Positions 30,887-61,542 of a DNA stretch of 64,000 nucleotides are shown here, piece after piece (within the stretch, counting starts at the first letter, position 1; each line of letters opens with the position of its first letter). Location: positions 1,632,001 to 1,696,000 of the forward strand of contig OY782041.1 of assembly GCA_963677595.1 (NCBI GenBank), given 5' to 3'. Position numbers and translations under genes: made by a program. The stretch is from Spirochaetia bacterium. Its GTDB lineage: Bacteria > Spirochaetota > Spirochaetia > CAKZLE01. The notes under the pieces were generated by a model that saw only the letters and a list, made by a program, of their open reading frames with translations, searched no databases and was not told the DNA's origin.

Positions 30887-32431
30887 TAGATGCTATCCTA
30901 TTCTTGACGGAGAATGGGAACCGGTGATCGTGTAATGATCTATTGTGATGGATGCTGGACTGCCAGACATACCTCAATGAGAAAGATACACTGACCGGTC
31001 ATCGAAGACTACTTGGAGACTTCCCGGGGAATTCTCCCCGGGAATGATCTCAATAATAAAAATGAAGGACATCTACGCACTTCCTGTCATAAAGCTTCCC
31101 AACTATCCGTTAATTTTATTTTGAGGAGGCTGCCATGATAGACAGACCTTTACGATTGACGGCAACCAGGATCATCGGCTTGGATCTTTCCAAGAAGACT
31201 CTGGTTGGGTGTATGCTGCTAGCAGAAGAAGGGTTCATGAAGAATCACTTCTTCAACGAGAAGATGAATGCTCAAGGACGTCAGCGACTCGCTGAACGGT
31301 TCAAAGCAGGAGATGCGATCTTTATGGAGGGAGGGACATCTTCCTTCAACCTCGCACGGTATCTGCTGAAGCACACCGAAGCAGACGTGTATGTACTCAA
31401 CCCCATGAAACTGCATATCATCTTCGAGTCGATCTGCAAGACAGATCGGCAAGATGCTGCAAAATTGGCTAAGTATGCACGGGATGCCCATCCTGAGAAC
31501 TGGGTACTGGTTCCCATCCCGACTGAACAGGAATCTGCTGAGCGCTCAGTAGTCAAACTTCACATCGCCTATGCTCAGTATCGTACGAAGGTCATCAACA
31601 AGCTTCATGCGGTATTCACGGGAATGGGGTTCCCTGACCTGAAGAAATCGGATCTGAAGGATCCTCGCAAGCGACGGGCCTGGGTGGAGACCCTACTCGC
31701 CGAGGAGATAGCTCTATTCAGTGCAGGGCTCCTGCTCGAAGAGCTTGAATCATTGGAGTCGCAGATGGAACGTATTCATGAGAAGCTCAAGGAGATCATT
31801 CTCGCTCATCCACGAGAAGCTCTTTCCTGGCTCTCGATCCCTGGCATCGGAGACATCACGGCTGTAACGCTCATTGCCTTCCTCGGTAATGGAGACCGAT
31901 TCTCTTCTGCTAACCAACTGAGGAACTATATCGGTCTCATCCCGAAGAAGGATCAATCTGGGACGGTCGATAAGCAGCTCGGGGTCTCTCGTCACGGGTG
32001 TATGCCGATCAGGAGGCACATCATGCAGGGAGCCTGGGGGATCAAGAGCTTTAGGAGAGATTGTTCTCTTACTCGGTACTGGCAGCGTCTTGAGAGCCGA
32101 CGGAAGCTTGGTCAGAAAGCATCAGTTGCCATTGCTAATAAGATGCTCTCTATCGGATTCGCTCTGCTGAAGAACGGTGACATCTACCGGATGCCTGACG
32201 GGGAACAGTATCTGTTGAAGAAACTGCAATACTATAAACTTGAAGCTCTCGTCGGAACCCGATCCTGGCAGATTAATTCCGATAAGAGCTCAATAACCAG
32301 CTAAAGCCAATCTAACGGTTTTAGCCTATCACTAACCACCTCCCCACGCAAGTCCTTATTTTTAAGGTCTCGGAGAATTGTGTCTATTTGAATTGCCAAA
32401 ACTTTCTTGTTTATACCCCTTGACATCTACA
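30887..32431 (+). mobile_element. IS110-family element (ends inferred)
   Basis: Transposase plus non-coding ends; CA dinucleotide at both junctions flanked by TAGATG / CATCTA; TTGACA near the right end. Confidence 0.7.
31135..32304 (+). CDS. IS110 family transposase (DEDD recombinase)
   Basis: GLDLSK, ME, KTD..DA, IPGIG, GL.P...QSG catalytic-Ser region, A.VAIANK. Confidence 0.92.
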   Translation: MIDRPLRLTATRIIGLDLSKKTLVGCMLLAEEGFMKNHFFNEKMNAQGRQRLAERFKAGDAIFMEGGTSSFNLARYLLKHTEADVYVLNPMKLHIIFESICKTDRQDAAKLAKYARDAHPENWVLVPIPTEQESAERSVVKLHIAYAQYRTKVINKLHAVFTGMGFPDLKKSDLKDPRKRRAWVETLLAEEIALFSAGLLLEELESLESQMERIHEKLKEIILAHPREALSWLSIPGIGDITAVTLIAFLGNGDRFSSANQLRNYIGLIPKKDQSGTVDKQLGVSRHGCMPIRRHIMQGAWGIKSFRRDCSLTRYWQRLESRRKLGQKASVAIANKMLSIGFALLKNGDIYRMPDGEQYLLKKLQYYKLEALVGTRSWQINSDKSSITS

Positions 32432-32447
32432 GACAAATAAAATAGAA

Positions 32448-32471
32448 CAGCCGCCCTTCTCAGGGCGGCTG
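32448..32471. terminator. Hairpin downstream of the pilus locus
   Basis: CAGCCGCCCT-tctc-AGGGCGGCTG; T-rich tail on the minus strand. Confidence 0.7.
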
Positions 32472-32491
32472 CAGGTATATTCACAGGTTGG

Positions 32492-32983
32492 TTAGTTAGC
32501 AATTACGGATAACGTCAGGATGTCTGAATACCTTGAGCTCGTCTCTGCGAGACTGCCGGCTTCATAGGCGATGGCAATATTGCCAGCCATGGTATAGTCA
32601 GAATTCTGGACATGTCCTACACCATGATCGAGTGCTACAACTTCATCACCGAACAGAATGTCGTATCCGATGGTCTCATCAGAATCTGATGAGGTCAGGT
32701 ACGGCGTGCCTTCTGAACTTGAGGCAGCATTCCTTGACGAAATCTCTACAGTATAACCAGTAGTTTTCGTTGAATTCTCTTTGATAGTTCCCACTTGGGT
32801 CCTACCGCTTTCGCTGTCGAGAGATACGCTGGAAGAAAGGGTATCATTCAGTATTACAAGGTCAGCTCTCTCAGGTACATAACCACGGAGTACAAGAGTT
32901 CCTGATGTAGCGGCAACGGTCGTTCCCAGAAATAAAACCATGTAAAGAAGAATCACTAACGAGGTTTTCATTTTAGTACGCAT
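32492..32983 (-). CDS. Pilin-like secreted subunit
   Basis: Signal peptide, GTLVLRG.V first strand, C-terminal YSD.LTLSV motif. Confidence 0.6.
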   Translation of the reverse strand: MRTKMKTSLVILLYMVLFLGTTVAATSGTLVLRGYVPERADLVILNDTLSSSVSLDSESGRTQVGTIKENSTKTTGYTVEISSRNAASSSEGTPYLTSSDSDETIGYDILFGDEVVALDHGVGHVQNSDYTMAGNIAIAYEAGSLAETSSRYSDILTLSVIAN

Positions 32984-33192
32984 CTTGGTACCCCTTCGTG
33001 TGTGATTTTTCTTACTTTTTACGTAGTTTATTTTTTAATGGTTTTTTGCAATATCTGTTTTACTATCTACTTTTTTCTATTATTCCCTCCCTGTGTATAC
33101 CTGCATACATAATACACCTGCAGGGGAAGAATATCTAGGTAAAAATGTGAGAGTGCTGAATAATTTATTACAAAAACAATAATGTAATCAGG

Positions 33193-34245
33193 TCAATTCC
33201 CGATGATGGTGAAAGTCAGGTAGTCGTAGTAGTCACCGGCAGGAACGAAATCGATCAAGGAACTGATCTGTATATCAATGGGGTAGCGGTCACCGGGTGA
33301 AGATGATGCATCAGCATACGGAACAAGGGAAGCCGGACTACCTGGTGAAAGCGGGTGCCAAACGTTTTCAAAAAAGAACTTATACTCCACATACGCATCA
33401 ACGGTCTCATGCTTCAGTTTGCTGCCGTAGGTCGACTGTACTTCAATGGAATAAGGGACCAGGGCTTCGATGATCAGATCGGCTTGTTGGACCTCATCTG
33501 GATCGAGCGTCCCGAAATTCATGGAATAGGGTGTGGAGGTGAATTCAAAAGCGCCGTCATGTTCTATGATCGAGGAGTTGATGGAAGCAGCGGCGTAGGT
33601 GTTGTAGGAAATGACCTGTGAATCGAGCAGTTCCAAGTTAGGCAGGTCTGCAAAGGTGAGCTCAGTCTGGGGGCCGTCCCCGGCAAGGTCAAGCAGTCCC
33701 CAGAGTTCCACGGTGAGTGACTGGTCTGAATAGGTGCCGGTGCTGATATACTGCCCAGCTGGAATCTCGAACTCGAATGAACTGTTGGCGGTGAATTTCC
33801 TTGTCTGTCCCCCGACATAGATCGTAAGGAGGTCATTCAAGGATGTCGCATCTGCCTTCGACATCAGGACGTTCCTTGAGCTGATGGAGTCATACAGCTG
33901 GTAATTGATGCTGTAACCGCCCTGGGAGATAGTTCTTTGGAGATAGGACCCTGAATCCCCTTCAGAGACCCCGATGACCAGCCAGTCGACCGGGATCGTC
34001 TTGTTCTGGTTGACTCCATTGATGGTGATCGATTCATTCGTCGTGATAGTGATACTACCGTCGTAATTATCAGCTGAGATATACGTAGACAAGTTCTTGA
34101 AGGTCGCTATTGACCCCACATACTGTTGTGCTGACACAGATAGCGTGGATATGATAAAGAGAAGAATTATAACGCTTCTGATACCTTTGACAGTTCTCAT
34201 CAGGACTCCAAATACAGACATACTGTCTATTTTGCTGACTGACAT
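33193..34245 (-). CDS. Two-domain pilus tip adhesin-like protein (spore coat U/Csu type)
   Basis: Signal peptide; NYQLY, IPAGQ...GTYSD, MNFG, AGDY.D.LTFTI; start may be 34200. Confidence 0.7.
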   Translation of the reverse strand: MSVSKIDSMSVFGVLMRTVKGIRSVIILLFIISTLSVSAQQYVGSIATFKNLSTYISADNYDGSITITTNESITINGVNQNKTIPVDWLVIGVSEGDSGSYLQRTISQGGYSINYQLYDSISSRNVLMSKADATSLNDLLTIYVGGQTRKFTANSSFEFEIPAGQYISTGTYSDQSLTVELWGLLDLAGDGPQTELTFADLPNLELLDSQVISYNTYAAASINSSIIEHDGAFEFTSTPYSMNFGTLDPDEVQQADLIIEALVPYSIEVQSTYGSKLKHETVDAYVEYKFFFENVWHPLSPGSPASLVPYADASSSPGDRYPIDIQISSLIDFVPAGDYYDYLTFTIIGN

Positions 34246-34384
34246 ATGGAATGCTGTTATTACCTTGGCAGTATACTTATTATAATTAGTATAATAACCT
34301 TACAAATGAAAAGAAATAGGCTATTATGATCAATTCCCAAAATAACTGCAGTTTACCTTGGGATCCTCTGTTCCTTAGGACTCT

Positions 34385-35386
34385 TCAGTTCCCAATGATC
34401 TCGAACACCAGGCTGTCTGAATAGTCACCTGCGGGTACCCACCCGAAGTCCCCGATGGTGATCGTAAGCGTATGGGCAGTCCCGTATGCATCCGTAGGAG
34501 GAGCATTGGAGATGAGCATGACCGGGTGCTGCGCTGCAGAGAGGTCGCATACCATACCGTCGATGTCGACGGTATAGGGGATGGTCTCTGTCACGGTCGG
34601 GTTCACATGGCTTAAGACACTGCCGTTATAGGAGTAGGCTGAGATGGAGTAGATGGAATTGGAGCATGCTATCGCATCCGCTTTTAGTACCTCCCCGGGA
34701 TAGATCACCCCGAAGTCCATACTGTACCCCTGTGAGTGCGGGTCATACGCTGAACCCATGTCGACGATGCATAATCCGATGCTGTGGTCGATTGTGATGG
34801 TAAGAGGCATGGTTACGTTATCCTCAAGCTCGGAATCATGGTAATAGGAGATCTCGATGGAGTCGGTGTAGGTCCCTGACGGAATATTCTGGCCTGAGGG
34901 GATCTCGAGGATGAAGCTGTGGCTGTATGTCTGGGTTATCGAAGACCTCCCCCCGATCTCAGAAGATGGGAACCGGTAGTAGAGGCAGTCCTCAAGAGAG
35001 GCAGCAGTCTCAGCATCCCGCAGGAGGTTCCGGTCTGTATCATTGTCATAGAGGTTGTAGTGGATGATCTCATTCCCCATGGTGTGAACAGCGTAGCGGT
35101 CGGAGACCGCTCCGCTGTTCCCGGCAGAGAAGTAGACATAGGTGTCTGCCGGGTCGGCAGTCTTCGGGTTATACGCCGTGTTATAGGCTCCCCGCTGTAT
35201 GACCAGCTCGAACTGGGCATGGTCGGTGAACTCCCGCATGTATGTCTCGGTGACCGATACCGGGTACTCCGCTATATCATAATGCTCGAGGATACCGTAG
35301 GCTGCCAATCCCTGCATTGCCAGCAGGAACACGCCGATGAAAATCGCGAGGTGTAGGTGTTGTCTGATTCGTCTGGTCTGCATCAT
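34385..35386 (-). CDS. Two-domain pilus tip adhesin-like protein (paralog)
   Basis: Signal peptide; YNLY, IPSGQ...GTYTD, MDFG, AGDYSD.L.F. Confidence 0.7.
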   Translation of the reverse strand: MMQTRRIRQHLHLAIFIGVFLLAMQGLAAYGILEHYDIAEYPVSVTETYMREFTDHAQFELVIQRGAYNTAYNPKTADPADTYVYFSAGNSGAVSDRYAVHTMGNEIIHYNLYDNDTDRNLLRDAETAASLEDCLYYRFPSSEIGGRSSITQTYSHSFILEIPSGQNIPSGTYTDSIEISYYHDSELEDNVTMPLTITIDHSIGLCIVDMGSAYDPHSQGYSMDFGVIYPGEVLKADAIACSNSIYSISAYSYNGSVLSHVNPTVTETIPYTVDIDGMVCDLSAAQHPVMLISNAPPTDAYGTAHTLTITIGDFGWVPAGDYSDSLVFEIIGN

Positions 35387-35394
35387 GTTTCCTA

Positions 35395-37869
35395 TTAGAA
35401 CTGCTTGTATTCGATCGGGATGATGATATCCTTCGCCTGGAAGATTCCCGTAATCCCCGACGGGATCTCAAGAGTGAACTCTATGCCGTCCCCGGCATAC
35501 AGCGTGACGATGTGGGTCCCGCTGTGGAGTCCGTAGATCTCAAAGGTCCCGTCGTTATAGGTAAAGAAGAATTCGGGGAAATCATCAGGTCCGAGGACTG
35601 CTCCCTGTTCCAGTACATCACCGGAATAGAGTGCTACAGGGGTCCCGTCAGAGAAGAGCATCCTTCCCTGGACCGTGACATTGGCATCCACCCCGATCTT
35701 GACAGTCCCGGCTTGGTGGTAGGCAGGTCGGAAGGTATAGCTGTCTGAACCTATCTCGAAGCCGTCGGGGATCTCGATCGGCTCTATGACGATGGCATGT
35801 TCGGTGAAGGAAGAGAGGCCGTTGATCACGGCGGCACCAACATTATCGGTCCTTCCTTTGTAGGAATTTCCGCTGGGGTTCACCCCAATGACCAGACCTG
35901 GGATCTGTACTTCCGGTGCGACCAGGACAAAGGAGTCGCTGATCGGTCTTGATACCCCGAACAGGCCATCGGCATAGGAGAAGGCGGTGTCCAGCCCAAG
36001 GTCTATCGTGTATACGGAGGAGCTCCCTGTACGGTTCATCTTGAGGTTTGCATCAAGGAGGAAGTCTGAATGCTTGATGTCGGCACTCAGGTTCGCTGAA
36101 TCCGGCAGGGGATCGTCAATGGTCAGGTCGCTCATGTTCAGCCCGAGGGACAGGTTCCCGTTCAGGTTCGTGGGCGTGTAGCTGGCATTCACCGTATTGG
36201 ATCCATCAAGGACATCCTGGTCAGCGCTGATGGAGAAATCAGCGTTCCTCGGGGAGTAGTTCGCTGCTATCTTGAAGGTCGGATTGTAGCTAAGTGAGGT
36301 ATCCCATGCTCCTGTATAGGATGCGGTCACCCCGAACTCTCGGGAGAGTCTCGCCCTCAGGGAGAGAGACAGGGAGGGGTTCACGACAGTACCGTCCTTC
36401 TCGAAGGTGATCCTGCCGGTGGTACTAGCGGAGACTGCTCCGAGGATAGTCTGTCCATATGACCCGGAGAGTTTCCAGGTGTTCGTCTGCGATGCCGCAG
36501 TGTCTGTGTTGCTGAAGGATGTGTAGTGGTCACTGGTATAGGTCCCAGTAAAGGTGTAGGCCCTGTTCACCAATGAGTTGGCATCCACATGGCGGTAGTT
36601 CAGCGAGGCAAGAAGGCCGAGATTCTCATCTGCAGTACGGCTCGCTGCGGTATTGAGTTTGAAGTTTCCAAGATTGGCAGCCCATACAGTAGAAAGCCCG
36701 ATGTTCTGCTGGTTTGTGCCTGCCTGGAAGAAGTATTGCCCGCTCATGTGGTCGCTGATCCCGAAGGTCTGCATGCCGAATACCTCGGGCCAGGTTGTGA
36801 GGTCCCGGTCCTTGAATCCCATACCGAAAGCGTACTCGGTCTGTCCGGGAGGGGTGAGTGCATTGTCATATGCGAACAGGAACTCCTCTGCAGCGACTTC
36901 CTCCCCGTCGGGATCCGTCAGCTGGATCTTGAAATCATTGACGCCGTTGTTGAAGTAGAAGTCATTGATGGTGTACATACCGGCGTTCATGTCAACGGCC
37001 TTGATCCTGCGGTTGTTCAGGAAGATGTTGACCAGGACGTTGTCTTCCGGTACGAGGAAGGAATGGGTGTAGTTAGAATAACTCTTCCGCTTGAAGGAGT
37101 TGGCATAGTTCCTGGAGATGACTGCCCCGAGATAGGCTGGAGAGCTCTGGTTCGGTGCAGCATCATAGGTGATATCGCCGAGCATCAGCCGAAACGGGAG
37201 GTCTACCCAGTCCTTTAGGAGGCGTGCATAGCCGAACGAGAAAGAAGTATCAGAGAACAGCGATGTGGTGAGCCTCGATTCAAGAGTCCAGCCGGAGAAG
37301 TTGAGGGAGGGTTCGAGGATGAAGCTTATGGGGGTCGATATCTCGAAGCTGCTGCTGTCATAGCCCATGGTGATCGACCCGTTTGAATAGATGTTGGTGT
37401 ACATACTGAACCTGCTCGGTTCGATCTCGGGGTATATAAGCGGGTCTTTTGCACCCAACAGCGATATATCCTGGCTCTTGGTGTTCTCCGGCGGGATGAA
37501 CACCTCGATGAGCAGGTCGAGCATGTTGAAGGTCACGATGACAGGGGCATCCTGCAGGTCGGCTATGGCGACCCACTGCTCGGGGTTCTCGGTGAAATAG
37601 GAGAGCTTCTCCTCCGAGATTCGGTCAGTGAGGAAGGATGCAAGTTCAACGATGTCGACCTCGGTATCCATCTCCTCCATCGGCAGGGAGTTGATCTCGC
37701 CGACATACCTCCCGTCTATGAGCAGGGGAAGATAGATCTCCTCAGGAGTGAAGGTAAACTCGAACTCCTGTGCAAATAGAGAGGTGGGTATTACCATTAA
37801 GAGGATAGCTGTTAACAGTAACGAAACAGTATGTAGATGCGCAGGCTTATCTGATGTTCTCCATTTCAT
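35395..37869 (-). CDS. Fimbrial usher-like outer-membrane protein
   Basis: About 820 aa, beta-rich; LGDI, V.IFLN.......AG.Y.I.DF....G.N, RPISDSF.LV, V.GR....DG.P; follows the chaperone gene; start uncertain. Confidence 0.8.
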   Translation of the reverse strand: MKWRTSDKPAHLHTVSLLLTAILLMVIPTSLFAQEFEFTFTPEEIYLPLLIDGRYVGEINSLPMEEMDTEVDIVELASFLTDRISEEKLSYFTENPEQWVAIADLQDAPVIVTFNMLDLLIEVFIPPENTKSQDISLLGAKDPLIYPEIEPSRFSMYTNIYSNGSITMGYDSSSFEISTPISFILEPSLNFSGWTLESRLTTSLFSDTSFSFGYARLLKDWVDLPFRLMLGDITYDAAPNQSSPAYLGAVISRNYANSFKRKSYSNYTHSFLVPEDNVLVNIFLNNRRIKAVDMNAGMYTINDFYFNNGVNDFKIQLTDPDGEEVAAEEFLFAYDNALTPPGQTEYAFGMGFKDRDLTTWPEVFGMQTFGISDHMSGQYFFQAGTNQQNIGLSTVWAANLGNFKLNTAASRTADENLGLLASLNYRHVDANSLVNRAYTFTGTYTSDHYTSFSNTDTAASQTNTWKLSGSYGQTILGAVSASTTGRITFEKDGTVVNPSLSLSLRARLSREFGVTASYTGAWDTSLSYNPTFKIAANYSPRNADFSISADQDVLDGSNTVNASYTPTNLNGNLSLGLNMSDLTIDDPLPDSANLSADIKHSDFLLDANLKMNRTGSSSVYTIDLGLDTAFSYADGLFGVSRPISDSFVLVAPEVQIPGLVIGVNPSGNSYKGRTDNVGAAVINGLSSFTEHAIVIEPIEIPDGFEIGSDSYTFRPAYHQAGTVKIGVDANVTVQGRMLFSDGTPVALYSGDVLEQGAVLGPDDFPEFFFTYNDGTFEIYGLHSGTHIVTLYAGDGIEFTLEIPSGITGIFQAKDIIIPIEYKQF

Positions 37870-38593
37870 ACGTAGCACTCAGTTGGCCTTCTTTCAGGCC
37901 TTCGGGCCATGGAACAAGGAAAATTCGTCGCTGCCCCGCCAGGATGTTCTCACCGGCGAATCCCTTCAGCTGATCTGCAGAAAGGGTCACCTGGGATGTC
38001 ACGCTACTACCGGATTTGGAGATGACGGTCACTTCCGGCTGGTACATGATCTGGTGTGTGTTCCCGTCATTCTGCATATCGATGGCAATGAACTTATTAC
38101 CGTTCTCATCCACATGTGCCTTGACCGATTTTAGCTTCAGGTTGTAGTCGAACTCATCAGGGACCACGTACATAGTACCTCGGTAGACAAGCAGGATGTT
38201 AAGGTTCGCACCTTCCTGGGCCTGGTCGAAGTTCAGCGGGAGCTGTTCAGCCTCGATCCTGAAGGGAAGTTCAGTATCGACAGAAGCAGGACCCCTCCAC
38301 TGGACACGTACAGTCTGATACGCCCCTGGTCTCACGACGACCTGCTTGGGATAGATGTAGAAGTAGTTCGAAGCATCCTCAAGCGTCTCTGTACCGTAGA
38401 GATCCATCTCCCTGGTCATAGCACTGATCTGGACACCAATGGTCTTGTCAGTATCGTTGACCACCCTGAACGTCTGCCGTGCGCCGGTCCCTGTAGGATC
38501 GAAATCCTTGGAGATAGGCGTAAACTGGAACGCAAAAAGAGCAGGGAGGATGCATATGAATAGTACGAGCAGGAATAATTTTCTTTGTTTCAT
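37847..38593 (-). CDS. Periplasmic pilus chaperone (PapD-like)
   Basis: Signal peptide; YP.Q.V..PG..Q.VRV.W, E..FRI.AEQLP, MYV.P, N.GNTH. Confidence 0.82.
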   Translation of the reverse strand: MKQRKLFLLVLFICILPALFAFQFTPISKDFDPTGTGARQTFRVVNDTDKTIGVQISAMTREMDLYGTETLEDASNYFYIYPKQVVVRPGAYQTVRVQWRGPASVDTELPFRIEAEQLPLNFDQAQEGANLNILLVYRGTMYVVPDEFDYNLKLKSVKAHVDENGNKFIAIDMQNDGNTHQIMYQPEVTVISKSGSSVTSQVTLSADQLKGFAGENILAGQRRIFLVPWPEGLKEGQLSATYEMENIR

Positions 38594-38613
38594 GGCATTA
38601 GTATACTATAGAT

Positions 38614-38647
38614 GAAAAAAAGACCCAAGAAAAATCTCGGGCCTTTT
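38614..38647 (-). terminator. Terminator after the major pilin gene
   Basis: Minus strand AAAAGGCCCGAG-N6-CTTGGGTCTTTT followed by T run. Confidence 0.7.
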
Positions 38648-38662
38648 GTTTCTTAGCCTTGG

Positions 38663-39178
38663 TTACTGTGCTTCAATTGTAAATGTTACTGTGTCATCGT
38701 AATCGCCTGCAACATAAGTTCCATTATCTGCTGTTACAGTCAACAAAATGTCATAGGCTTCACTTTCGAAAGTAGTATTTGCTGCAGAAGTAAAAAAGAA
38801 AGTAGTATTATCAAAAACAACAGCAGTTCCGCCAAAAGTCAATGAATAAGGAACAAAGAAATCTGCTGTCCCGTCATCATTCAGGAACCTAGCACCATCA
38901 GTTGTATCATAGTTTACACTCGTTGCTTTGATCTTAAAACCTGTTACAGTGTTTGAATCAACAGTTCCAGTCGCAACTAGTAAGTCTGCTTCACCACCAG
39001 AAAGATCAATTGCAGAAGCATTACTATTTGCAGCGATGCTCAATTCAAGAATCTGATCGATTGAACCAGACAGGGCTAATACATCATCGGCAGCATTTGA
39101 ATCAGCGAAAATGGCTCCACTAGCCATAACCAACATAACCAATACGACTAAGACACTTTTGGAAAAACTTTTTTTCAT
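38663..39178 (-). CDS. Major pilin-like subunit
   Basis: Signal peptide ending IFA; L.LSGSI strand; C-terminal AGDYDDTVTFTI; first gene of the cluster. Confidence 0.72.
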   Translation of the reverse strand: MKKSFSKSVLVVLVMLVMASGAIFADSNAADDVLALSGSIDQILELSIAANSNASAIDLSGGEADLLVATGTVDSNTVTGFKIKATSVNYDTTDGARFLNDDGTADFFVPYSLTFGGTAVVFDNTTFFFTSAANTTFESEAYDILLTVTADNGTYVAGDYDDTVTFTIEAQ

Positions 39179-39529
39179 GTTTTCTTTCCTCACTTTATGT
39201 AATAATACCTATACTATACTATTTTGGTGCAGCAAAATCAAGAGAAGATTGTAATCAGTACAAGCGAATTATTACAAAATGTAAGGATTTCCATGTAAAT
39301 AAGTTATCTTGGGAGATTAGTGACGCTAAATATGGTGTCCAGTTGCTTTATTCCTATATTCCTGCACAATATCTGCAAATGTAAAAAGAGTGTAAAAATA
39401 TATCATACAGAGTCTTTATGGGAAGGTTTTTTACTGTTTCTTTGCCTGTTTCCCTGTTGTTCCGGGGGGTTCCGTCGTAGAATATGAGTATCCGGGAGGT
39501 TGGTGTCAAGTTCCTCCGGGGTGCATGAA

Positions 39530-42343
39530 ATGAGTAGGTTCCTCTGTTTCCTCATCGGTATGCTCCTCCTGTTCCCCGGCTGTCTCCTCGTGGGGCAGTC
39601 CTTGGGGGAGGCTGTGCCTGAAGAACCCATACACATTGGGATCACCCCTGAACGAGAGCGGCTCAGGGAGAAGATAGCGAGCGGCATCAACTACCTCTGG
39701 TATTTCGGGGACTGGGATGAGGTAGCCCGGGATGAGGAGTACCTGGACATGGCCATGGACTTCGGGCTGGTCCTGCTGCACCTCACCAACAATGATATCG
39801 ACCCGGAGCAGGTGAAAACCCTGCGAAAAGGCCATGACGGGATCTCCGGGACTGCCGATGACGTGCTCGTCATCGGCTACCTCTCCATTGGGGAGGATAT
39901 CAGGACGGATAAGGACCATATGAGTCCACTGGAGGTGGGGGACGGCAGGGGACCGGTCTACTGGGACTATGCGAAGAAGGAGAAGGTCTTCCAGGATAAC
40001 GGCTATCCCTCCTATTACCTCGATGACCGGGACAAGGACGGCCTGCCTGACCGGAACTGGCAGTACCAGGGCTGCTATGCAGACCCGGGCAACCCCGACT
40101 ACCAGCTGATGCTCAAAACCGGGAAGAAGGACGAGGACGGGTTCGTCGGGCTCGACGAGCTCTTCTCCCGCTATGAGTGCGACGGGGTCTTCCTCGATAC
40201 CATGGATGTGGTCAACCCACTCGGCTGGGGGTTCCCCTTCTACTTCGAATGGGTCGCCCCGGGCGGGCAGAAACTCATCGAGCAGTTCAGGGCCTGGTAC
40301 CCGGACAAGCTCATCCTCCTCAATCGGACCCTCGTCTACTTCGACCCTAACGGGACGCAGGAAGACGGCACGCCCTACCTAGGGTCCTGGGGCAAGGATA
40401 TCGAGGATGATATCGACCTCGTCCTCTTCGAGGGGTTCTACTGGCCCGGGGACGAGGTCCGGAACCGGAACTACTGGGCCCCGAAGATCAATGCCGAGGC
40501 AGACCGTACCGGCGGCTTCACCGTCCTCGTCCTCGACTACGTCGGGGACGCCCATATCATGATAGACGGGGACCTCCAGGACTGGATCTGGAACGGGGAG
40601 GTCCAGGAGGGGGTGGAGAAGCTCGATGACGCCCTCATCTGGAGCCGCGGCGTCACCACGCCGAACGAGGCCGAGGATTGCGAGACGAAGGGGATCGACA
40701 TGGTCGACATGTGGATGGCGAACGACCCTGATAACATCAACATGTATATGCGCATAGACCTCGCCGGGAAACCCGACATCGCAGCCTATAACTACTATAT
40801 CTTCCTCGATACCGACCAGGACCGGGGGACGGGGTACCGGAACGGACCCAGTTCCCTCCTGGGTTCGGACTACCTGGTCACCGACCTCAGCAGGGACGGC
40901 TTCTTCCTCTACCGGTATGCGTGCAAGACAGGCCAGGACTCATGGGACTGGGAGCTTGTCGGGGAGATCCCCTCTGCGACCGGCATCCCCTACGGGGAGC
41001 TTGGTTCGATCGAGCTCGCGATACCGAAGGCCCTCGTCGGGGAGCGGGATGTCTTCGACGAGGCAGTGGACCTGGTCCTCTTCACCGAGGATGCGAGCAT
41101 CTACCCCTACCGGACGGACCAGGCCCCAGATGACCAGGAGAAGGACTTCTACCAGTACCTCTCGAGGACCCGTGCCCTGGGCTTCGAGGAGACGATTACC
41201 CGGCAGGGGTGGCTCGCCTATAACAAACCGCTCATCGGCGGGTCGAAGGTCCCGCTGATCAATCTCCATGCCGCCGAGGTCACAGCCCTCCCCGATACTG
41301 AACCACCGGTCTGGGACTCGACTGCGGCATCTCCGGGAGTCGGGAACCCTGCCGCCCCGGTCCCGAGGGTCGGGATCCAGGAGGCAGAACCGGGAGACGG
41401 TTCAGTCACCGTCCGGTGGGACACGGCGCGTGACCGAACACGTCCGGTGACCTATACCATCTACTACAGCACTGATGCAGAATTGAACCCTGCAACAGCG
41501 ACTCAAGTTAAGAATATTGATACGACCACCGCCGGGAGGAACTATTACCAGGGTACAGGACACCGGGATGACTTCCCGAACGTGCAGGGCTCCCCCAATG
41601 GGTTCTACTCGCAGAAGGTCGGGGAAGGAGTCTATCCCTATGAATACACGATCGATGGATTGGAGAATGATAGGACCTACTACTTCATGGTCCGTGCTTC
41701 CGACCATGCGGCTGAGCCGAATACGGAGACCAACTCGGTAGTGCTCTCGGCAACCCCCAGGCGGCCTGTCACCCGTACTATCCGCCTCGACGGTAAGGTA
41801 GGGGATTGGGAGAAGGTCATCCCGCTCGACTTCTCCCCGGGGGAGGTAGCCGACCCCGATACCCTTCCCCCGGAGATTGATATCACGGAGATCAAGGTGA
41901 CCGAGGACCGGGATGAGATATTCTTCCTCATAACCGTCGAGGGTGCTGCTGACTTCGGGAAGTGGCGGGACCAGCTCTCGGTCTACATCGATACCGACGG
42001 GGATAAGACTACCGGCTATGCCGGGGCGTTCGTCCCCACCTTCCCGTGGATGGTCGGTGCGGACTACATGCTCCAGAACGGGAGTCTCTACTCCTATGAG
42101 CCGCTGAACGGATACCGTGTCTGGAACTGGGTCATGGAGGCAGAGAACGGGAAGGGGCAAAGCCGCATGGTCTATACCGACAGCCAGGTGGAGCTCTCGG
42201 TAAAGAAGTCAGCCCTGGGCGATCCTGATGGTATCAGGATCGCGGTCGAGACCGACCGGATCCTCGATGACGGGAGCCATCTCATCGACCGGGTTCCGAA
42301 CGACCTCTTCTCGCACTATTACACGTATACGCTCCTGCAGTGA
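39530..42343 (+). CDS. Secreted GH114/PelA-like glycoside hydrolase with Fn3 and DOMON-like domains
   Basis: Signal peptide; IGYLSIGED, DGVFLDT, LNR, FE motifs; Fn3 (V.WD.A, GL.N...YYF.VRA); repeated IDGD..DW / IDTD....TGY modules. Confidence 0.65.
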   Translation: MSRFLCFLIGMLLLFPGCLLVGQSLGEAVPEEPIHIGITPERERLREKIASGINYLWYFGDWDEVARDEEYLDMAMDFGLVLLHLTNNDIDPEQVKTLRKGHDGISGTADDVLVIGYLSIGEDIRTDKDHMSPLEVGDGRGPVYWDYAKKEKVFQDNGYPSYYLDDRDKDGLPDRNWQYQGCYADPGNPDYQLMLKTGKKDEDGFVGLDELFSRYECDGVFLDTMDVVNPLGWGFPFYFEWVAPGGQKLIEQFRAWYPDKLILLNRTLVYFDPNGTQEDGTPYLGSWGKDIEDDIDLVLFEGFYWPGDEVRNRNYWAPKINAEADRTGGFTVLVLDYVGDAHIMIDGDLQDWIWNGEVQEGVEKLDDALIWSRGVTTPNEAEDCETKGIDMVDMWMANDPDNINMYMRIDLAGKPDIAAYNYYIFLDTDQDRGTGYRNGPSSLLGSDYLVTDLSRDGFFLYRYACKTGQDSWDWELVGEIPSATGIPYGELGSIELAIPKALVGERDVFDEAVDLVLFTEDASIYPYRTDQAPDDQEKDFYQYLSRTRALGFEETITRQGWLAYNKPLIGGSKVPLINLHAAEVTALPDTEPPVWDSTAASPGVGNPAAPVPRVGIQEAEPGDGSVTVRWDTARDRTRPVTYTIYYSTDAELNPATATQVKNIDTTTAGRNYYQGTGHRDDFPNVQGSPNGFYSQKVGEGVYPYEYTIDGLENDRTYYFMVRASDHAAEPNTETNSVVLSATPRRPVTRTIRLDGKVGDWEKVIPLDFSPGEVADPDTLPPEIDITEIKVTEDRDEIFFLITVEGAADFGKWRDQLSVYIDTDGDKTTGYAGAFVPTFPWMVGADYMLQNGSLYSYEPLNGYRVWNWVMEAENGKGQSRMVYTDSQVELSVKKSALGDPDGIRIAVETDRILDDGSHLIDRVPNDLFSHYYTYTLLQ

Positions 42344-48881: not shown

Positions 48882-49222
48882 CACAGGACAAGAAGCACCG
48901 GGGGAACCTCTTCGAGGATCCCAGGGTAGAGCGGGCTCCCGGCATCGACCGGGTCACGCTCACCTATGACGAAGACTCGATGATCTGCTACTTCTACCTT
49001 GCCAAGGGTTCAGTCCTGGAGATGCACACCCATGTGCAGTCCCAGAACGGGATAGTCATGAAGGGCAGGATAGACTTCATCAAGGGAGACGGGGAGGTCC
49101 TGGAGCTCAAAGCAGGCGATGCCTACTACTTCGGCCCGAACGATCCCCACGGTTCCAATGTGATCGAGGATACTGAGCTCATGGAGTGTTTTGCCCCTTC
49201 CCGGGATGATTATAAGGTGTGA
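48878..49222 (+). CDS. Cupin domain protein
   Basis: H.H...Q, G.I.F, PHG, F.P.R.DY. Confidence 0.85.
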   Translation: MTQDKKHRGNLFEDPRVERAPGIDRVTLTYDEDSMICYFYLAKGSVLEMHTHVQSQNGIVMKGRIDFIKGDGEVLELKAGDAYYFGPNDPHGSNVIEDTELMECFAPSRDDYKV

Positions 49223-49297
49223 CAGTAGAAATTAGGGAATATTCACGGTAAGATGTCAAAATAATCATAAAACGTATGATAGCGAGGTGCGTATCTG

Positions 49298-50020
49298 ATG
49301 AAAGGTATGTTTGCGGTCAACGGGAAACGTCTCTCCTCTGTCGAGATCGTGGTGGAGAAGATCAAGGAACTGCTGATCAAACAGAAACTCAAACCCGGCG
49401 ACATGATCCCGAGCGAGATGGTCCTGGCGGAAAACCTGCAGGTGAGCCGCAGTTCCGTCCGTGAGGCGGTGAAGATCCTCTCGGCCTATGGGATCATCGA
49501 GATCCGCAGGGGCTCAGGCACCTTCATCTCCACGGCCTCGAACAAGCGGCTCTTCGACCCGCACCTCTTCCAGATCCTCGTGCAGGAGCGCGACTACCAC
49601 TCCCTGACCCAGGTCAGGGACCTCCTCGAGGAGGGAGTCGTCCAGCTCGTGGTCGAGAATGCCGATGAGGAGGACTTTATCCTCCTTGAGGATGCCATGC
49701 AGGAACTGCTCGGCGAACTGAATAAGAAAGACATCTCACGGGAGAAGGCGAACCAGTACGACCTGCAGTACCACCAGCTGCTCGGCAAGTTCTCCCATAA
49801 CCCCATCGTGGAGAACATCTACAACTTCATCATCGAACTCTTCGCCCCGACGATCAACCCGATCCATGAGGGCGTCTATGAAGCCCATAAGAACCTGCAC
49901 CAGGCCATCATGGATCGGGATGCCAACAAAGCAGTCGAATGCGTAAAGTACCATACCAGCATATGGATAGCATCCCACAGCTTCGAATTCATGAACGGGG
50001 AGAGCAAGAAAGAAGAATAA
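49298..50020 (+). CDS. FadR/GntR family regulator
   Basis: PSE..LAE.L.VSRSSVREA, G.GTF; FCD-type domain. Confidence 0.92.
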   Translation: MKGMFAVNGKRLSSVEIVVEKIKELLIKQKLKPGDMIPSEMVLAENLQVSRSSVREAVKILSAYGIIEIRRGSGTFISTASNKRLFDPHLFQILVQERDYHSLTQVRDLLEEGVVQLVVENADEEDFILLEDAMQELLGELNKKDISREKANQYDLQYHQLLGKFSHNPIVENIYNFIIELFAPTINPIHEGVYEAHKNLHQAIMDRDANKAVECVKYHTSIWIASHSFEFMNGESKKEE

Positions 50021-50092
50021 CGAGTATTTCATACTCATATATCTAGACAAACAGGAGATTATGAGTATACTCATTGTACAGTTCAATCAATC

Positions 50093-50164
50093 GGGCGATT
50101 AACTCAGTGGGAGAGTGCTACCTTGACATGGTAGAAGTCACAAGTTCAAATCTTGTATCGCCCA
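50093..50164 (+). tRNA. tRNA-Val(GAC)
   Basis: Acceptor GGGCGAT/ATCGCCC, anticodon arm CTACC-TTGACAT-GGTAG, T-loop GTTCAAATC; CCA not encoded. Confidence 0.95.
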
Positions 50165-50170
50165 TCTTAG

Positions 50171-50202
50171 AAGGTCATTTCCTAAAAGGGATGACCTTTT
50201 TT
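50171..50202 (+). terminator. tRNA terminator
   Basis: AAGGTCATTTC...GGGATGACCTT followed by T run. Confidence 0.82.
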
Positions 50203-50617
50203 TGGGCTCAACATAATTTTGATCGGTATGCTGATGGGGTGCTTGACGATAGAATGTGAGCCTGAGGTTGAGGCGCCGGAACTCTCGGTGGAGCGATTGG
50301 CATTCCCAATTGGTAACTTCATCGCTGAACCCCGACTGAAGTCGATTTGATCTATAACCTCTAGGTCCTTGGGTGGTATATAGCGCGGTTGGAAGCCTAT
50401 ATTGATTTACTGGAGCATGTGCGCAACGAAAAGCTGTATTAAACACACCTATTACTGAATACCTACACATGTTTAGTTTCCTTATCGATAGGGCATATGG
50501 TATGATATTCATATTCTGATAGCTGAGCTCATAGTGGTACGTTTTAGATTCTTCAGAGATGAGTAGAGAGTAAAAGAATGGAATCACTTTGAGGTATCAT
50601 TTGCGATTGGGGGAATA

Positions 50618-50868
50618 ATGGTTGATTTATGCTCTTTTCCATCACTTCCAAGTTATCAGGATTACTATGAAATAACTTATAAGGAACTTGATTCCCGAAT
50701 AAAGTACTTAGAGAATAGCTTAGAAAACATGCCCAAAACAGCTGAGGAACGAGCAAATCTAGGTGTTGCATATTTCTTTTTGATTGCGGTTATCGTATCT
50801 CTAGCCTTCATAGTGAATCTGGGTTTAGGTGTTCTTGTTTTAGTGGTTGGTATTGTTGTTTTTATTGA
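50618..50868 (+). pseudogene. Small membrane protein gene interrupted by IS200
   Basis: Two hydrophobic segments run into the IS left-end hairpin; frame can resume at 51430-51472. Confidence 0.45.
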
Positions 50869-51431
50869 GTCTTGGAAAACCACCGCCTATGGCGGTGGTC
50901 ATGGAATGAAGGCTACGCCGTAAGAAAAGTGTGATATGATAAGGCATGTCCAAGTGGAAGAAACAGTCGCATGTAGTATATCAGTGTATTTACCATATCG
51001 TATGGTGTCCAAAGTACCGGTTTCGGGTACTGAAAGGTGCTATAGAGAGTTATGTAGAACACCGGATACGAGAACTGTGTGAATGGAAGCAGATAGAGAT
51101 ATTGGAACTGAACGTGATGGAAGATCACGTACATATGGTGGTAATCGTACCACCAAAAATATCGTTATCAGAAATGATGGGCATGCTGAAAGGGAAAACA
51201 GCAATCAGCTTGTTTAAGAGTTTTCCAAAGTTTAAAGAGAAGCCGTATTGGGGAAACCACTTCTGGAGTCGCGGGTATGCTGTTACGACGCTCGGGTTGG
51301 ATGAAGATAAGATACGACGATATATGAAGTATCAAGAAGAGAATGAGCGACTCGAAGAAGCTCAGCAGGAAGAATTCGGCCTCTTTTAGAGGCCTAATAC
51401 AAGCCACCTCCTCTGGGGGTGGTTGTTGACT
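50869..51431 (+). mobile_element. IS200-type element (tnpA only)
   Basis: Subterminal hairpins at 50879-50899 and 51403-51423; no tnpB; ends approximate. Confidence 0.8.
50946..51389 (+). CDS. tnpA: IS200/IS605 Y1 transposase
   Basis: YHIVWCPKYR, DHVH (HUH), LKG, FWSRGY, catalytic Y...Q. Confidence 0.95.
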   Translation: MSKWKKQSHVVYQCIYHIVWCPKYRFRVLKGAIESYVEHRIRELCEWKQIEILELNVMEDHVHMVVIVPPKISLSEMMGMLKGKTAISLFKSFPKFKEKPYWGNHFWSRGYAVTTLGLDEDKIRRYMKYQEENERLEEAQQEEFGLF

Positions 51432-51696
51432 GCTACAAGAAGCATGCAATAATGTTCAAGGAACAGTTTTAAATCCCACATTCCTCACTTTCATGACGCA
51501 CACATAGCAGGATTTTCCATTTCAGGAAAGGATTGAGACTACGAAGGGCTATTCATCCTTACCGATCCTCCACACGGCATAAAAATCGGCAAATCCGCCT
51601 GGTTGCTACCCCGTCTGAACAGACATGCTGATGATCAGGACAGTAACCAGCCTTCTCATAGGTTCTGAGGATCAGACGCAGGTACACCTACGAAGT

Positions 51697-52512
51697 TCAT
51701 GCATGCAGAGAGGTCAGGACACACCTCACCCCCTTGTCGTAGAATACGCGTTCATCAAGACCCAATGCAGACAGGAAGGCCAACTGACGGGAAGAGAGCG
51801 GATTTACCAGCACCGCTTCTGCTCCCATCTCTGCCGCCATGATACCGCCAAACACGGTACTCATCATGAATGAAGTCGGCTTTGCCGTCGGTTTGTTGTC
51901 CCAGCCTGGTACCGTAGTACCTTCCTTCTGGAGATACCGCCGCATCTGCCGCTCCATCAACCGCCAGACCATCAGGGCGATCACGAGAATCATCCCCAAT
52001 GCATCTATGCGGGAAGGGGTTTTCAGAAACAGGTCATTGACTACCAGGGGATCCTTGAGGAATGAAAAATCACTCTCGATCCCATACTGGCCTTTGTACG
52101 TACGCAGTACCGATGCGGCATCAAGCGATGCAACAGCAACATTGGTAAGCAGCACAAAACATCCTGCCTGCTCTCTGAGCACCTGCAGCTTGTCCGACTT
52201 TTCGGTGATCTCCCAGTTCAACTCATACCGCAGATCTACAGGCGGCGGACCCTCCTTCGGGGGACGTCCACGACGCCGAACCGCCACTTCTTGGATCGTA
52301 ACCGTTAACGAGTGCAGCGGGGAAGAGACCGCAGCGAGGTTGGCAGCAGCAACCTGCGCATCTTCGCTGCAGTAATACTGTCGCTGAACTTTCTTCAATT
52401 TCCCGTTCAGCTCCTTCAACGATTGCTCAATCGCTTTGTCAATCTTCTTCTGCCTTCGCTTATCATGGGAACTCGAATGTATCACGACCCCGCGATAGGG
52501 CTTTTCATACAA
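51697..52512 (-). pseudogene. 3' part of the outer IS1634 transposase
   Basis: Matches the C-terminal half of 52735-54438. Confidence 0.9.
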
Positions 52513-54961: not shown

Positions 54962-55855
54962 ATACAACGTTACCGTCGTCTCGCACCCCTTATAGATCGC
55001 AGGAGGCCGGTTCTTCCCTGTTGGTGTTTCAGCCATCATGCCTATGGGACTCCAGCGACCCGCTCCGATCGCTTCCCTTATTGCCTGGTCACATGCGCCG
55101 TAGGTTGCCGGAAGACGGCTGATGAATGGCATCGACCCTAAAGCCTCCAGATTCTCCTGCGTCACCATGGCCGAGTCTGCAACATAGATACAGGCCCCAT
55201 CTCCCAACCCATGTCGGGAGAGCAGTGTACTGATCCGTGTGAGCATCGCATTGTTAGACGTCTTGTCTGAGGAGTTCCCATTGAGGGTACTGCTGAAGAT
55301 TGGGACCCCATGATCCACGCACAGTAACTCCGTCATGAACTGCTTGAGATCCGGTCGGTGATCCTTGGAGTGCCCCAGGACGATCGAAGGCCCCGGGGTC
55401 TTTTCCTGCTCACTCCCCCGGTATTCCCCCCAGACACTCGTACTGGTAGTATCGTAACTGAGGGCATGCATATCCAGATCGAAGACCTGTGCTGCCCGAA
55501 TCCCCAGTTCGGTCACAATCTTCGATGGGCCGGCATCGAAGATCGCATCCAGGGACCGAGCTATGTTCGTGTCATTGAACAGATGCGGATCTACCTCCTG
55601 TCCCAGCAATAGGCTGCGGTTCTGCTGCTCGATGAACTGCTCGATCCGATACAGCGGCGACCGTCCATGCAGGACATCGAGCACCATCGTCTGTACCACG
55701 AGCCCCGGAGATAGCTGCATACGGGTCTCCACCGCCGCATCCACGATGTCTCTCAACCCGAGCATGCGGCAGTAGGCCGCCGCAATGGGCAGGTAGGAAT
55801 GGGTATAGATTCTGGTATGCTGAAACAGGGTTGAAAGGGGCGGAGTACTGGCCAT
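54962..55855 (-). pseudogene. 5' part of the outer IS1634 transposase
   Basis: Matches the N-terminal half of 52735-54438, truncated at the inner IR. Confidence 0.9.
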
Positions 55856-55945
55856 CGGTATCCTCCTGTAGCGGTCGTGGAAACAGGACTTGACTGATCA
55901 CTGAACCTACTGTATTATACAGTAGGACAAGAGAGGAGTCAAGTC

Positions 55946-56308
55946 ATGACCACCGAGACGGCACAGAAGCGCCTTCAGGTACTTCGCCGCAAACAGCAGG
56001 AACTCGCCAAGGAACTGAGCACGATCGAATTTATCTGGTCAGGATCCATCTCCAAACGGTTTCTTACCTGCGGGAACCCCTCGTGCAAGTGTCATACAGA
56101 CACTGAGGCCAAGCATGGACCGTATTACTATTGGACGACCAAAAAGGGCGGGAAGACCGTAGCCAGGAAGCTCACAGAGCAGCAGGCTGAGGTCCTCCAA
56201 CCATGGATTGAGAACAGGAGAACCCTGGAGAAGACGATGAATGCCATGAAGAAGCTCTCTCAGGATGCGTATGAAGCCATTTTGGTCCTCTTGGACGATG
56301 AAGGGTAG
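55946..56308 (+). CDS. DUF6788-like protein (second copy)
   Basis: Identical protein to 54529-54891. Confidence 0.8.
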   Translation: MTTETAQKRLQVLRRKQQELAKELSTIEFIWSGSISKRFLTCGNPSCKCHTDTEAKHGPYYYWTTKKGGKTVARKLTEQQAEVLQPWIENRRTLEKTMNAMKKLSQDAYEAILVLLDDEG

Positions 56309-56445
56309 CGCTTTTTAAACCGATTTTAGCCCGAAATTAAATACCCGTTTTTTGCTGAGAAATAGTGAGGAATGTGGGTTAAATGTAGGTCCATATTTGA
56401 AAAATTTGCATTATCAGAATTTAAAGTTTGTAAAAGGAGTAAACA

Positions 56446-57723
56446 ATGGAGTTCTATCTGGAAATAATAAATGACAAAGTAATCGAGGTTTATTCTGAAG
56501 AAAATGGTGATGAACTTATTAAAATAACTTGTGAATCTGTTGATGAGTTTTATGAAAAAGTTAGTGGGTATGAAATTAATGAAGATTTTGATGAAAAAAT
56601 TAAAGAATTTTTTGAAGATTCAAGAAATAATGAATCATTAAACCGTTTTCATATAAAGCATTGGGTAAGTAATCGATCATTTGGAGAGTTAATCGATATG
56701 TATGAGCATGATGAAATTATTAAACCTGAAATGCAAAGAGATTTTGTATGGACTTCTCTTAAGTGTTCAAGGTTAATTGAATCTATTATTCTAGGTTTAC
56801 CTATACCTCCATTGTTTTTAATGGAAGTAGATAAAAATCAGTATGAACTTGTAGATGGATATCAAAGATTAACAACAGTGTTTAACTATGTGAAGGGTAA
56901 TCCTTGGGGAGGAAAAAAAGATAAACGAAATGTCAAGGCTAAATTATCTTCAAAGGTTTCTGTTGAATTGCAAAAAAAGGCTTTTGAAGATCTAGAACCT
57001 GAACATCAAAAAGCTATTAGAAGAAGTACTATTCCATTGATAGAATTTAAGCAGTTAGAACCAAATAACCTGTCATCTAAATACCTCATTTTTGAAAGAA
57101 TAAACACTGGGTCTGATAAGTTAAATCAAATGCAGATTAGGAAATCATTAGCATATGGAGAACTAATAAAAAGTCTATATTCAGTTGCAAATAAAAGTAG
57201 CGAATTTACTAAGTTGTTTTCTGCTGGAAACCTGAAAAAGGATGTACACGTAGAAGCTTATTTAAGAATATTATGTATGACTGATATTTATTATAAAAAA
57301 TATAAACCAGAGAAATATGGTATCAATTATGTACTCAATGATTATTGCGAAGTTTTTAGAAAAAAGGAGATTACAGATGAAAGAAAGGCTAAGATTAAAG
57401 AGGCTCTAACTTTTGCGTATTCTGTTTTTAATAAACCTGAAGAAATATTTAGGAAAGTTGATATGATTAAAGGACAAAGAAGATTTATCGGGAACTTAAA
57501 TATTAGCATTTTAGAGGCTTTTATTGGAGTATATATTGAAGAAAAAAACAAAATCACAATTAGAGTGGAAGAAATTTACATGAATTATATTTCTATTATG
57601 AGTGGGATTTCAACAAAAGAAAAGCAAGAAGGGGAAGAGAACTTTTTTACAACTCATACAGGAACTGAGAAAGCAATTACCAAAAGGTATGATTCAATAA
57701 AAAAAATCTTTGGGATTAATTAA
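56446..57723 (+). CDS. DUF262 (GmrS-like) domain protein
   Basis: P..QR.FVW, LIESI..G.PIP, VDG.QRLT, IFERIN.G; RBS AAGGAG. Confidence 0.9.
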   Translation: MEFYLEIINDKVIEVYSEENGDELIKITCESVDEFYEKVSGYEINEDFDEKIKEFFEDSRNNESLNRFHIKHWVSNRSFGELIDMYEHDEIIKPEMQRDFVWTSLKCSRLIESIILGLPIPPLFLMEVDKNQYELVDGYQRLTTVFNYVKGNPWGGKKDKRNVKAKLSSKVSVELQKKAFEDLEPEHQKAIRRSTIPLIEFKQLEPNNLSSKYLIFERINTGSDKLNQMQIRKSLAYGELIKSLYSVANKSSEFTKLFSAGNLKKDVHVEAYLRILCMTDIYYKKYKPEKYGINYVLNDYCEVFRKKEITDERKAKIKEALTFAYSVFNKPEEIFRKVDMIKGQRRFIGNLNISILEAFIGVYIEEKNKITIRVEEIYMNYISIMSGISTKEKQEGEENFFTTHTGTEKAITKRYDSIKKIFGIN

Positions 57724-60318: not shown

Positions 60319-60538
60319 GCTGACAAGCATACCATAATTGCACAGAAAGAACAACCTAATTGATTATATTGCAACTAGTTGCATAGGTCTGCAACACGGA
60401 CAATGTCAGAGGTCTGCCTTGCAGGAACCCCTGGTGCGCCCTGTTTTTGCCCCAGCTGATCCCAGACGTGTATACCCTCTCGTTTCTTCGTACCACAGGC
60501 GTTCAGAAGCGTCCAAAATTTTGTGTTCTTTTTTCCTG

Positions 60539-61269: not shown

Positions 61270-61542
61270 CCTCCGCTGTTACGTTAGAGGATTCTCAACT
61301 CCCTGCATACTGTGTATGCGGTTTGATGCTCACTTTGAAGAAATACAATGATATGGTTCAAGCAGTCCTAATATTTGAGGATTTACTTAATGGAATATCC
61401 ATTTTATCAACAATGGATTTAAGGTCTCATAAACCATTTTATGAAAAAGTATTAGAAGTAAAGCAAAATGATTTACTTTTTTCAAAAAAGTAAGTATTAA
61501 CTGGTTTTCATAAATATGGCTTATATAAAGGATAATTGTAAA

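Follow-up and report, generated by a model that had tools for sequence, protein, structure and literature searches.

The DNA analysed here is a stretch of 64,000 nucleotides (positions 1,632,001 to 1,696,000 of contig OY782041.1, assembly GCA_963677595.1), hereafter the window, from the genome of a Spirochaetia bacterium. Six co-oriented genes on its minus strand, all with open frames, encode a pilin, a chaperone, an usher, two tip subunits and a second pilin (Table 1), in the order, and with the completeness, given by an initial annotation made from the sequence. The attribution of the cluster to a chaperone-usher system also held, as supported by matches to PapD_N, Usher and SCPU (spore coat U) and by the folds modelled for the usher and the major pilin. 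NCBIfam names none of the six genes, and neither pilin has a Pfam family or an SCPU match.

Table 1 Features of the chaperone-usher cluster (positions in the window).
Feature	Position	Strand	Description
Major pilin	38663..39193	-	176-residue frame; no Cys; hypervariable mature region
Chaperone, periplasmic, non-classical type	37847..38593	-	248 residues; PapD_N E 8.6e-6, over cut-off
Outer-membrane usher	35395..37878	-	827 residues, no Cys; PF00577 E 1.8e-9, over cut-off
Tip subunit 1, two-domain, CsuE-like	34385..35386	-	333 residues, 4 non-conserved Cys; SCPU E 4.1e-6
Tip subunit 2, two-domain, paralog of tip 1	33193..34245	-	350 residues, no Cys; SCPU E 0.001, below cut-off
Second (minor) pilin	32492..32983	-	163 residues; no Cys; kept in host family
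Terminator-like hairpin between major pilin and chaperone	38618..38647	-	13 pairs, T tail
Terminator-like hairpin closing the cluster	32447..32472	-	11 pairs, 8 G-C, T tail
Segment replaced in close strains	38682..39103	-	first mature codon (D31, 176-residue frame) to about residue 171

The usher is the only one in the genome. Its model is of low confidence (predicted local distance difference test, pLDDT, 55) but matches FimD best (E 7e-21) and also PapC, with LptD as the next fold (9e-8), in keeping with the initial view of the 827-residue protein as an usher barrel. An usher with PF00577 and the FimD fold, together with a PapD-type chaperone carrying the invariant proline, assigns the cluster to the chaperone-usher pathway irrespective of class.

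For the major pilin, the ATG at 39178 is a likelier start than the GTG at 39193, because a GAGG stretch resembling a ribosome-binding site precedes the ATG; a database call (P0175) agrees with the resulting 171-residue precursor. The initial annotation had let the locus end at this ATG while counting 176 residues, a length that goes with the less likely GTG start. The mature protein comprises 146 residues, with its first codon at 39103. An AlphaFold2 model of it, built from 26 sequences (pLDDT 81.7), has a beta-sandwich core and leaves the N-terminal residues 1-18 unpaired. This is an incomplete immunoglobulin (Ig) fold with an N-terminal extension, as expected if the subunits lack complete Ig folds, the other three subunits being judged by sequence only. 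The top Foldseek match of the model is CfaB (E 6e-5). CupE1 scored Z 9.4 and CsuA/B Z 8.9 (root-mean-square deviation, rmsd, 2.8 over 118 residues; aligned to CsuA/B 17-145), and CupE1, CfaE, CS17, CsuA/B and CsuE all fall within one Z unit (8.9-9.4). Searched against the sequences of solved structures, the pilin profile gave CsuE as its sole match, at E 0.14.

All four subunits end in a shared C-terminal strand, YxDxxxxxxxxx. The initial annotation had described such a common strand, and the motif matches exactly these four proteins among all stop-to-stop frames of more than 100 residues in the 4.3-Mb genome, so that the coincidence is not due to chance. The lack of cysteine reported for the 176-, 163- and 350-residue proteins was confirmed and extends to the usher. 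The two tips are paralogs with 28% identity in the N-domain and 36% in the C-domain. A profile of 19 tips, 15 of which carry SCPU, matches CsuE (E 9.1e-7), and the four cysteines of tip 1 are sporadic, orthologous tips mostly having none or one. At a relative's locus (L024:841-1329, genome G402), the first tip paralog reads as 162 residues with the middle missing, which may be an internal deletion or a misassembly.

The system is widespread in the class. With a profile of 100 sequences and a threshold of E 1e-10, an usher was detected in 91 of the 401 Spirochaetia genomes, spread over 45 of 156 genera. By family, it occurs in 31 of the 38 genomes of f12 and in none of the 37 of f5 or the 20 of f6; five of the six genomes of the host's order hold it, one of them with only the last 32 residues at a contig end. 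We examined 66 loci, 60 of them from the 91 holders (40 outside f12 and 20 within it, with a few genomes giving two) and six found earlier. The order pilin-chaperone-usher-tip recurs over about 18 Spirochaetia families and is standard outside f12. The f12 loci (L146-L165, L019, L022) combine a chaperone with ushers mostly of 1030-1250 residues that bear long extensions, and have no adjacent tip; in some, the usher is followed by one to four divergent, Cys-poor secreted proteins of 170-220 residues with a Y-x-G strand end, and others have no subunit nearby. The family of the window is marked by a second pilin and by additional tips, of which L018 has one, the cluster described here two, and G401 and G402 three; relatives in this family keep the cluster beside the same nucleotidase and nitroreductase genes, with the same chromosomal neighbours in G401, G405 and L065. 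In a FastTree phylogeny, 65 of the 66 Spirochaetia ushers form one branch (support 98) that is largely sorted by family, with several families split, which fits long residence with some transfer.

A phylum-wide sample gave matches in 18 of 401 at E 1e-3, 11 of them short and weak; inspection of five of these 11 revealed no usher locus. A metagenome scan with the usher yielded three loci, and the ESM Atlas returned feature look-alikes only. Two further loci stood out. The usher of L109 (G445:C138) groups tightly with that of G401 though its genome is filed in another family, owing either to recent transfer or to a binning error, and L051 (G143:C54), in a spirochaete of another class, holds a chaperone and the start of an usher of this type.

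Descriptions of chaperone-usher pili exist for Proteobacteria, Cyanobacteria and Deinococcota. Two other genomes from our host's genus (G401 and G402) belong to Spirochaetia/Spirochaetales, so that the host is a spirochaete as initially supposed. The accompanying remark that no characterised pilus of this kind was known from the phylum holds insofar as listings of the openly available literature showed neither work on such a pilus in spirochaetes nor a named clade. It needs qualifying for the ushers themselves: Table 1 of PMC4827864, in the available portion of that article, lists Spirochaetae among the usher holders of TCDB, and RefSeq already names the Marispirochaeta aestuarii relative an usher (WP_083052413.1).

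The spirochaete subunits end differently from the archaic (sigma) references. From the Tyr of YxD to the C-terminus there are 12 residues in 41 of 46 spirochaete pilins and 40 of 44 tips, as opposed to 11 in all nine references; the spirochaete proteins mostly finish in A-K, A-N or A-Q, and the nine references in Tyr. Archaic subunits are marked by a short strand F whose last residue is aromatic, and the spirochaete subunits lack this feature.

The key residues of the chaperone are Pro82, Arg112 and the donor strand L131-I133-L135-Tyr137, together with the clade-specific Arg61, His180 and Asn216; its single cysteine lies in the signal peptide. The invariant proline, Pro82 here, is present in 16/16 chaperones of a mixed set and in 66/66 from spirochaetes. 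Arg112 occupies the alignment column of the Arg found in EcpB and in sigma chaperones, an Arg that the two aligned classical chaperones lack. According to the accessible text of PMC4654587, the presence of Arg89 together with a P0 donor residue defines non-classical chaperones, while binding in Csu also involves Tyr196 and Arg174. By the first definition our chaperone is non-classical, having the Arg89 equivalent and a register-shifted donor strand with a P0 residue; among the spirochaete chaperones, the Arg occurs in 65/66, the P0 Tyr (Tyr137 here) in 63/66, and His180 and Arg61 in 65/66. The archaic domain-2 anchor is missing, since the position of Tyr196 is Asn in 62/66 and that of Arg174 aliphatic in 66/66, both positions having been located by aligning the sigma homologues and EcpB rather than CsuC itself. 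The longer subunit end may be coupled to this changed anchor.

Regarding the class of the system, a 24-row tree placed the usher in a clade (100/99) with ushers from Leptolyngbya, Vibrio and alphaproteobacterial plasmids, apart from the SCPU/Csu-type (100/99), alpha (100/100) and classical (99/99) groups, and gave no supported order among the three non-classical groups. As sigma references, this tree contains plasmid loci with annotated spore coat U subunits rather than CsuD itself. An approximately unbiased (AU) test on the tree without CsuD, CupE5 and Slr0019 did not reject the clade and the Csu-type ushers as one group (p 0.397). The usher phylogeny proposed as a check on the initial annotation thus returned a separate clade with sigma membership not rejected, and the annotated match to archaic/Csu systems is borne out by the SCPU-type and CsuE-like subunits and not by the usher clade, the cysteines, the C-terminus or the domain-2 anchor.

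With archaic Csu of Acinetobacter and CupE of Pseudomonas, the cluster shares the gene order, the SCPU-type subunits and two-domain CsuE-like tip (the SCPU domains being found in the tips only), the pilin fold, and chaperone equivalents of Arg89, Pro59 and P0 Tyr116. It differs from them in lacking the Cys pair, in an end that comes one residue later and reads A/G followed by K, N or Q instead of Tyr, in the replacements of Tyr196 and Arg174, in the separate usher clade, and in that Spirochaetota is not among the phyla listed for sigma. On sequence grounds the cluster is not of the Csu/CupE type in the strict sense, because the Cys pair, the domain-2 anchor and the short strand F are all missing; its usher also sits in a separate clade. 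With the alpha or class 5 systems (CFA/I, CS1, ECP) it has in common a Cys-free major pilin of the CfaB fold, CFA/I pilins being without cysteines (10.1101/2021.01.18.427124), a chaperone profile that matches EcpB, and a weak sister position in usher trees (70/53). Unlike in these systems, the usher lies outside the alpha clade and Pfam gives it PF00577 only, not the TcfC/CooC_C domains, and the tips are SCPU/CsuE-like. Domain 2 of the spirochaete chaperone has no cysteine and therefore lacks the C2-D2 disulfide of class 5 chaperones, as described in the excerpted text of PMC4133393. Classical pili (type 1, P) resemble the cluster in usher architecture, by Foldseek to FimD and PapC, but their ushers form a separate branch (99/99), and the spirochaete chaperone has the non-classical Arg.

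The closest known loci are those of the same usher clade from Leptolyngbya, Vibrio, Photobacterium, Indioceanicola, Niveispirillum, Qipengyuania and Sphingobium, with the same chaperone motifs and the longer subunit end; their proteobacterial members differ in having kept the Cys pair. The cyanobacterial set CccS/CccP/Slr0019 of Synechocystis, described in the available parts of PMC4390875 and 10.1101/130278, probably belongs here too, judging by the place of the Leptolyngbya plasmid locus, and the consulted portion of PMC13348674 files Vibrio vulnificus operons under sigma.

The usual presence of a disulfide in archaic pilins, which the initial annotation noted, agrees with the accessible sections of PMC4654587 and PMC10104325, in which the Cys pair is described as invariant or as highly conserved. 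The pair occurs in 0/46 spirochaete pilins: within their final 140 residues, 43 have no Cys and three have one; the archaic positions in strands A and B hold Leu/Ile and mostly Ser. Among 44 spirochaete tips, 33 have no Cys, seven have one and four have two or three. In the alignment, five proteobacterial clade members and four sigma references have the pair, and the pilins of the spirochaetes and of Leptolyngbya do not.

The host genome, 95.4% complete and with BamA present, contains no detectable DsbB, VKOR, DsbA-type thioredoxin or heme-copper oxidase, and no flagellin was found, each search having working controls; a search for FlaA was uninformative, as its controls gave no signal. DsbB or VKOR was found in 0/52 usher-holding Spirochaetia genomes. 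From the gaps for flagellin, Dsb, VKOR and oxidase we infer that the host is an anaerobe. A Csu-type locus in another Spirochaetia genome (G696:C7, L143) has an usher grouping with sigma and subunit ends of the form TVxY, yet both its pilins are Cys-free, as opposed to Cys in 9/9 proteobacterial sigma references; it is a second, separate case of Cys-free pilins in a host without DsbB/VKOR. Even numbers of cysteines were found in 127/310 exported proteins of the host, no excess over the 930/1996 of cytoplasmic ones, under a crude signal-peptide rule and with no positive-control genome.

The major pilin varies strikingly between strains. Relative to G401, identity is 80% for the chaperone, 61% for the usher and 66% for the mature second pilin, and only 30% for the mature major pilin. 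In P0192 the signal peptide is 100% identical and the mature part 24%, though the usher of the same genome is 94% identical (P0001 and P0192 being taken as one genome). In contigs from four sequencing runs the mature region is replaced or breaks off, at 39090-39103 and 38672-38682: an RNA contig of run X6 has a joint with 399 other letters between, and runs X1-X3 have a joint or loose ends. Runs X4, X5 and X7 contributed small shares and were excluded from this mapping. The N-domain region of tip 1 is likewise replaced in a close strain (joint 34663-35474, run X1). Silent cassettes for gene conversion are the arrangement of Borrelia or Treponema antigens. No silent pilin cassettes were found in our genome, where a blastn search for further copies gave none and the profile picked out a single other complete pilin gene, outside the cluster, so that exchange between strains is the likelier route. 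The replacement of alleles is thus observed; as to its cause, it is likely that the major pilin is exposed and under diversifying pressure, and that strains exchange it through recombination at the signal-peptide and tail sequences, which are conserved.

In an RNA library from marine sediment, the only contigs on the 9.5 kb searched were one of 552 bases on the second pilin and one of a major-pilin variant. The other 8.5 kb gave no contigs, and this absence over chaperone, usher and tips proves nothing; a 20-kb control gave only short pieces, mostly under 95%. The contigs on the pilin genes are a hint of expression.

Terminator-like sites in the region number five against 5.7 expected by chance, and promoter-like sites 15 against 8.9; these counts are no evidence of function, and for the hairpin between major pilin and chaperone only the position is suggestive. 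An IS110 transposase gene (31135-32304, +) lies just beyond the terminator closing the cluster; it has five full copies in the genome (97-100% identity) and is not at this place in G401, G405 and L065. On the other side, the major pilin adjoins a divergent gene (39500-42343, +), also present in G401 and G402, for a secreted protein of 947 residues with an FN3-like domain, whose N-terminal part looks by motif like a glycoside hydrolase but had no database match, solved sequences included. Stretches of low G+C, down to 0.32, at 49000-52000 and 55500-64000 are unrelated to the pilus cluster. Outside the window, an orphan pilin gene (G000:C1:3982305-3982823, -) far from any usher encodes 172 residues with a signal peptide, the same C-terminal strand and no Cys in the mature part, possibly an alternative subunit for the single usher of the genome.

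From the gene set and its families, the model folds, the residue patterns, the distribution and the missing Dsb genes, we consider it highly probable that the usher, the non-classical chaperone and the four Ig-fold subunits without Cys pairs assemble an adhesive surface pilus by donor-strand exchange, in a host with no detectable disulfide enzymes. The subunits would cross the inner membrane by their signal peptides, and the chaperone would lend its G1 strand (L131, I133, L135, Y137) to the open groove of each. Arg112 may hold the subunit's C-terminal carboxylate, helped by His180 and Asn216 where CsuC has Arg174 and Tyr196; the latter two would suit an end that is one residue longer (A/G, then K, N or Q). 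The usher would start the fibre with one of the two tips and then add many major pilins, each of which would complete its predecessor through its N-terminal strand. For the conserved second pilin, a role as adaptor or anchor is proposed. The likely purpose would be attachment of a non-motile sediment organism to particles, surfaces or partner cells.

Several points weigh against this reading. Fibre, complex and ligand are predictions from sequence, the usher model is poor (predicted template modelling score 0.37; rmsd over 16 to FimD), and neither phmmer nor a profile linked the usher to a solved usher. With Z-scores of about 9, the pilin fold gives modest matches that do not separate the families, the chaperone profile matches EcpB alone and weakly (E 0.021) with CsuC not found, and the RNA hint comes from contigs of one study retrieved with this very stretch. 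The initial claim of a disulfide-independent pilus of an anaerobe agrees with the missing DsbA, DsbB, VKOR and heme-copper oxidase. It is weakened in that Cys-free pilins are known from CFA/I, in that the association of missing Dsb with missing Cys amounts to one inherited event (65 loci) and one separate case, and in that the first pilin of the Leptolyngbya relative, an aerobic cyanobacterium, is Cys-free as well, so that anaerobiosis is not the only route to Cys loss.

The cluster could be an ordinary, diverged archaic (sigma) member, its differences being drift and only the host phylum new. We regard this as a serious possibility that falls somewhat short of even, given the SCPU and CsuE matches, the sigma gene order, the AU test and a clade that includes cyanobacterial and Vibrio ushers, groups cited as sigma, set against well-supported separate branches for these and the Csu-type ushers, the longer C-terminus that none of the nine sigma references has, the Asn and aliphatic replacements in the chaperones, and a top Foldseek match, CfaB, that is an alpha pilin. 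A further-reaching reading, which we put forward tentatively and would sooner doubt than assert, is an old, mostly vertical third branch of non-classical pili with its own grip on the C-terminus. It would be a common but unstudied fibre of free-living Spirochaetia that lost its disulfides in hosts unable to form them, and the mature major pilin would be swapped between strains as a cassette, with signal peptide and tail staying fixed on either side, in the manner expected of a phage receptor.

It is unlikely that the same secretion chemistry makes no discrete pilus here, with the usher exporting a surface coat, a capsule-like mesh or an accessory adhesin. Such a role would have a parallel in the Synechocystis set, which the available text of its two sources reports to act on type IV pili and adhesion and to modify these pili rather than to build a fibre of its own, and also in the Leptolyngbya locus, with no tip gene beside it, and in the f12 loci with their long ushers, no adjacent tip and 0-4 divergent small subunits. 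However, a two-domain CsuE-like tip follows the usher both in the window and in almost every one of the 40 loci outside f12, and this is how pili capped by a tip are laid out. The adjacent IS110, the G+C content falling to 0.38-0.49 over the pilin genes and tip 2, and the fragmented usher relative in L065 might suggest a decaying island of recent origin without any product, but this is very improbable in view of six open frames, relatives that keep the same neighbours without IS110, and ushers held across the host's order in one branch largely sorted by family.

If the cluster makes an adhesive pilus, then, with the system in 91 of the 401 Spirochaetia genomes, spirochaetes of sediments and digesters, unflagellated ones too, would possess a concrete organelle for attachment. 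It could be tested in Marispirochaeta aestuarii, a cultured species with an annotated usher. Since the clade mixes sigma traits (tips, gene order) with alpha traits (no Cys, CfaB-like fold), it bears on the relation between alpha and archaic systems, and also on how pilins stay stable without a disulfide lock.

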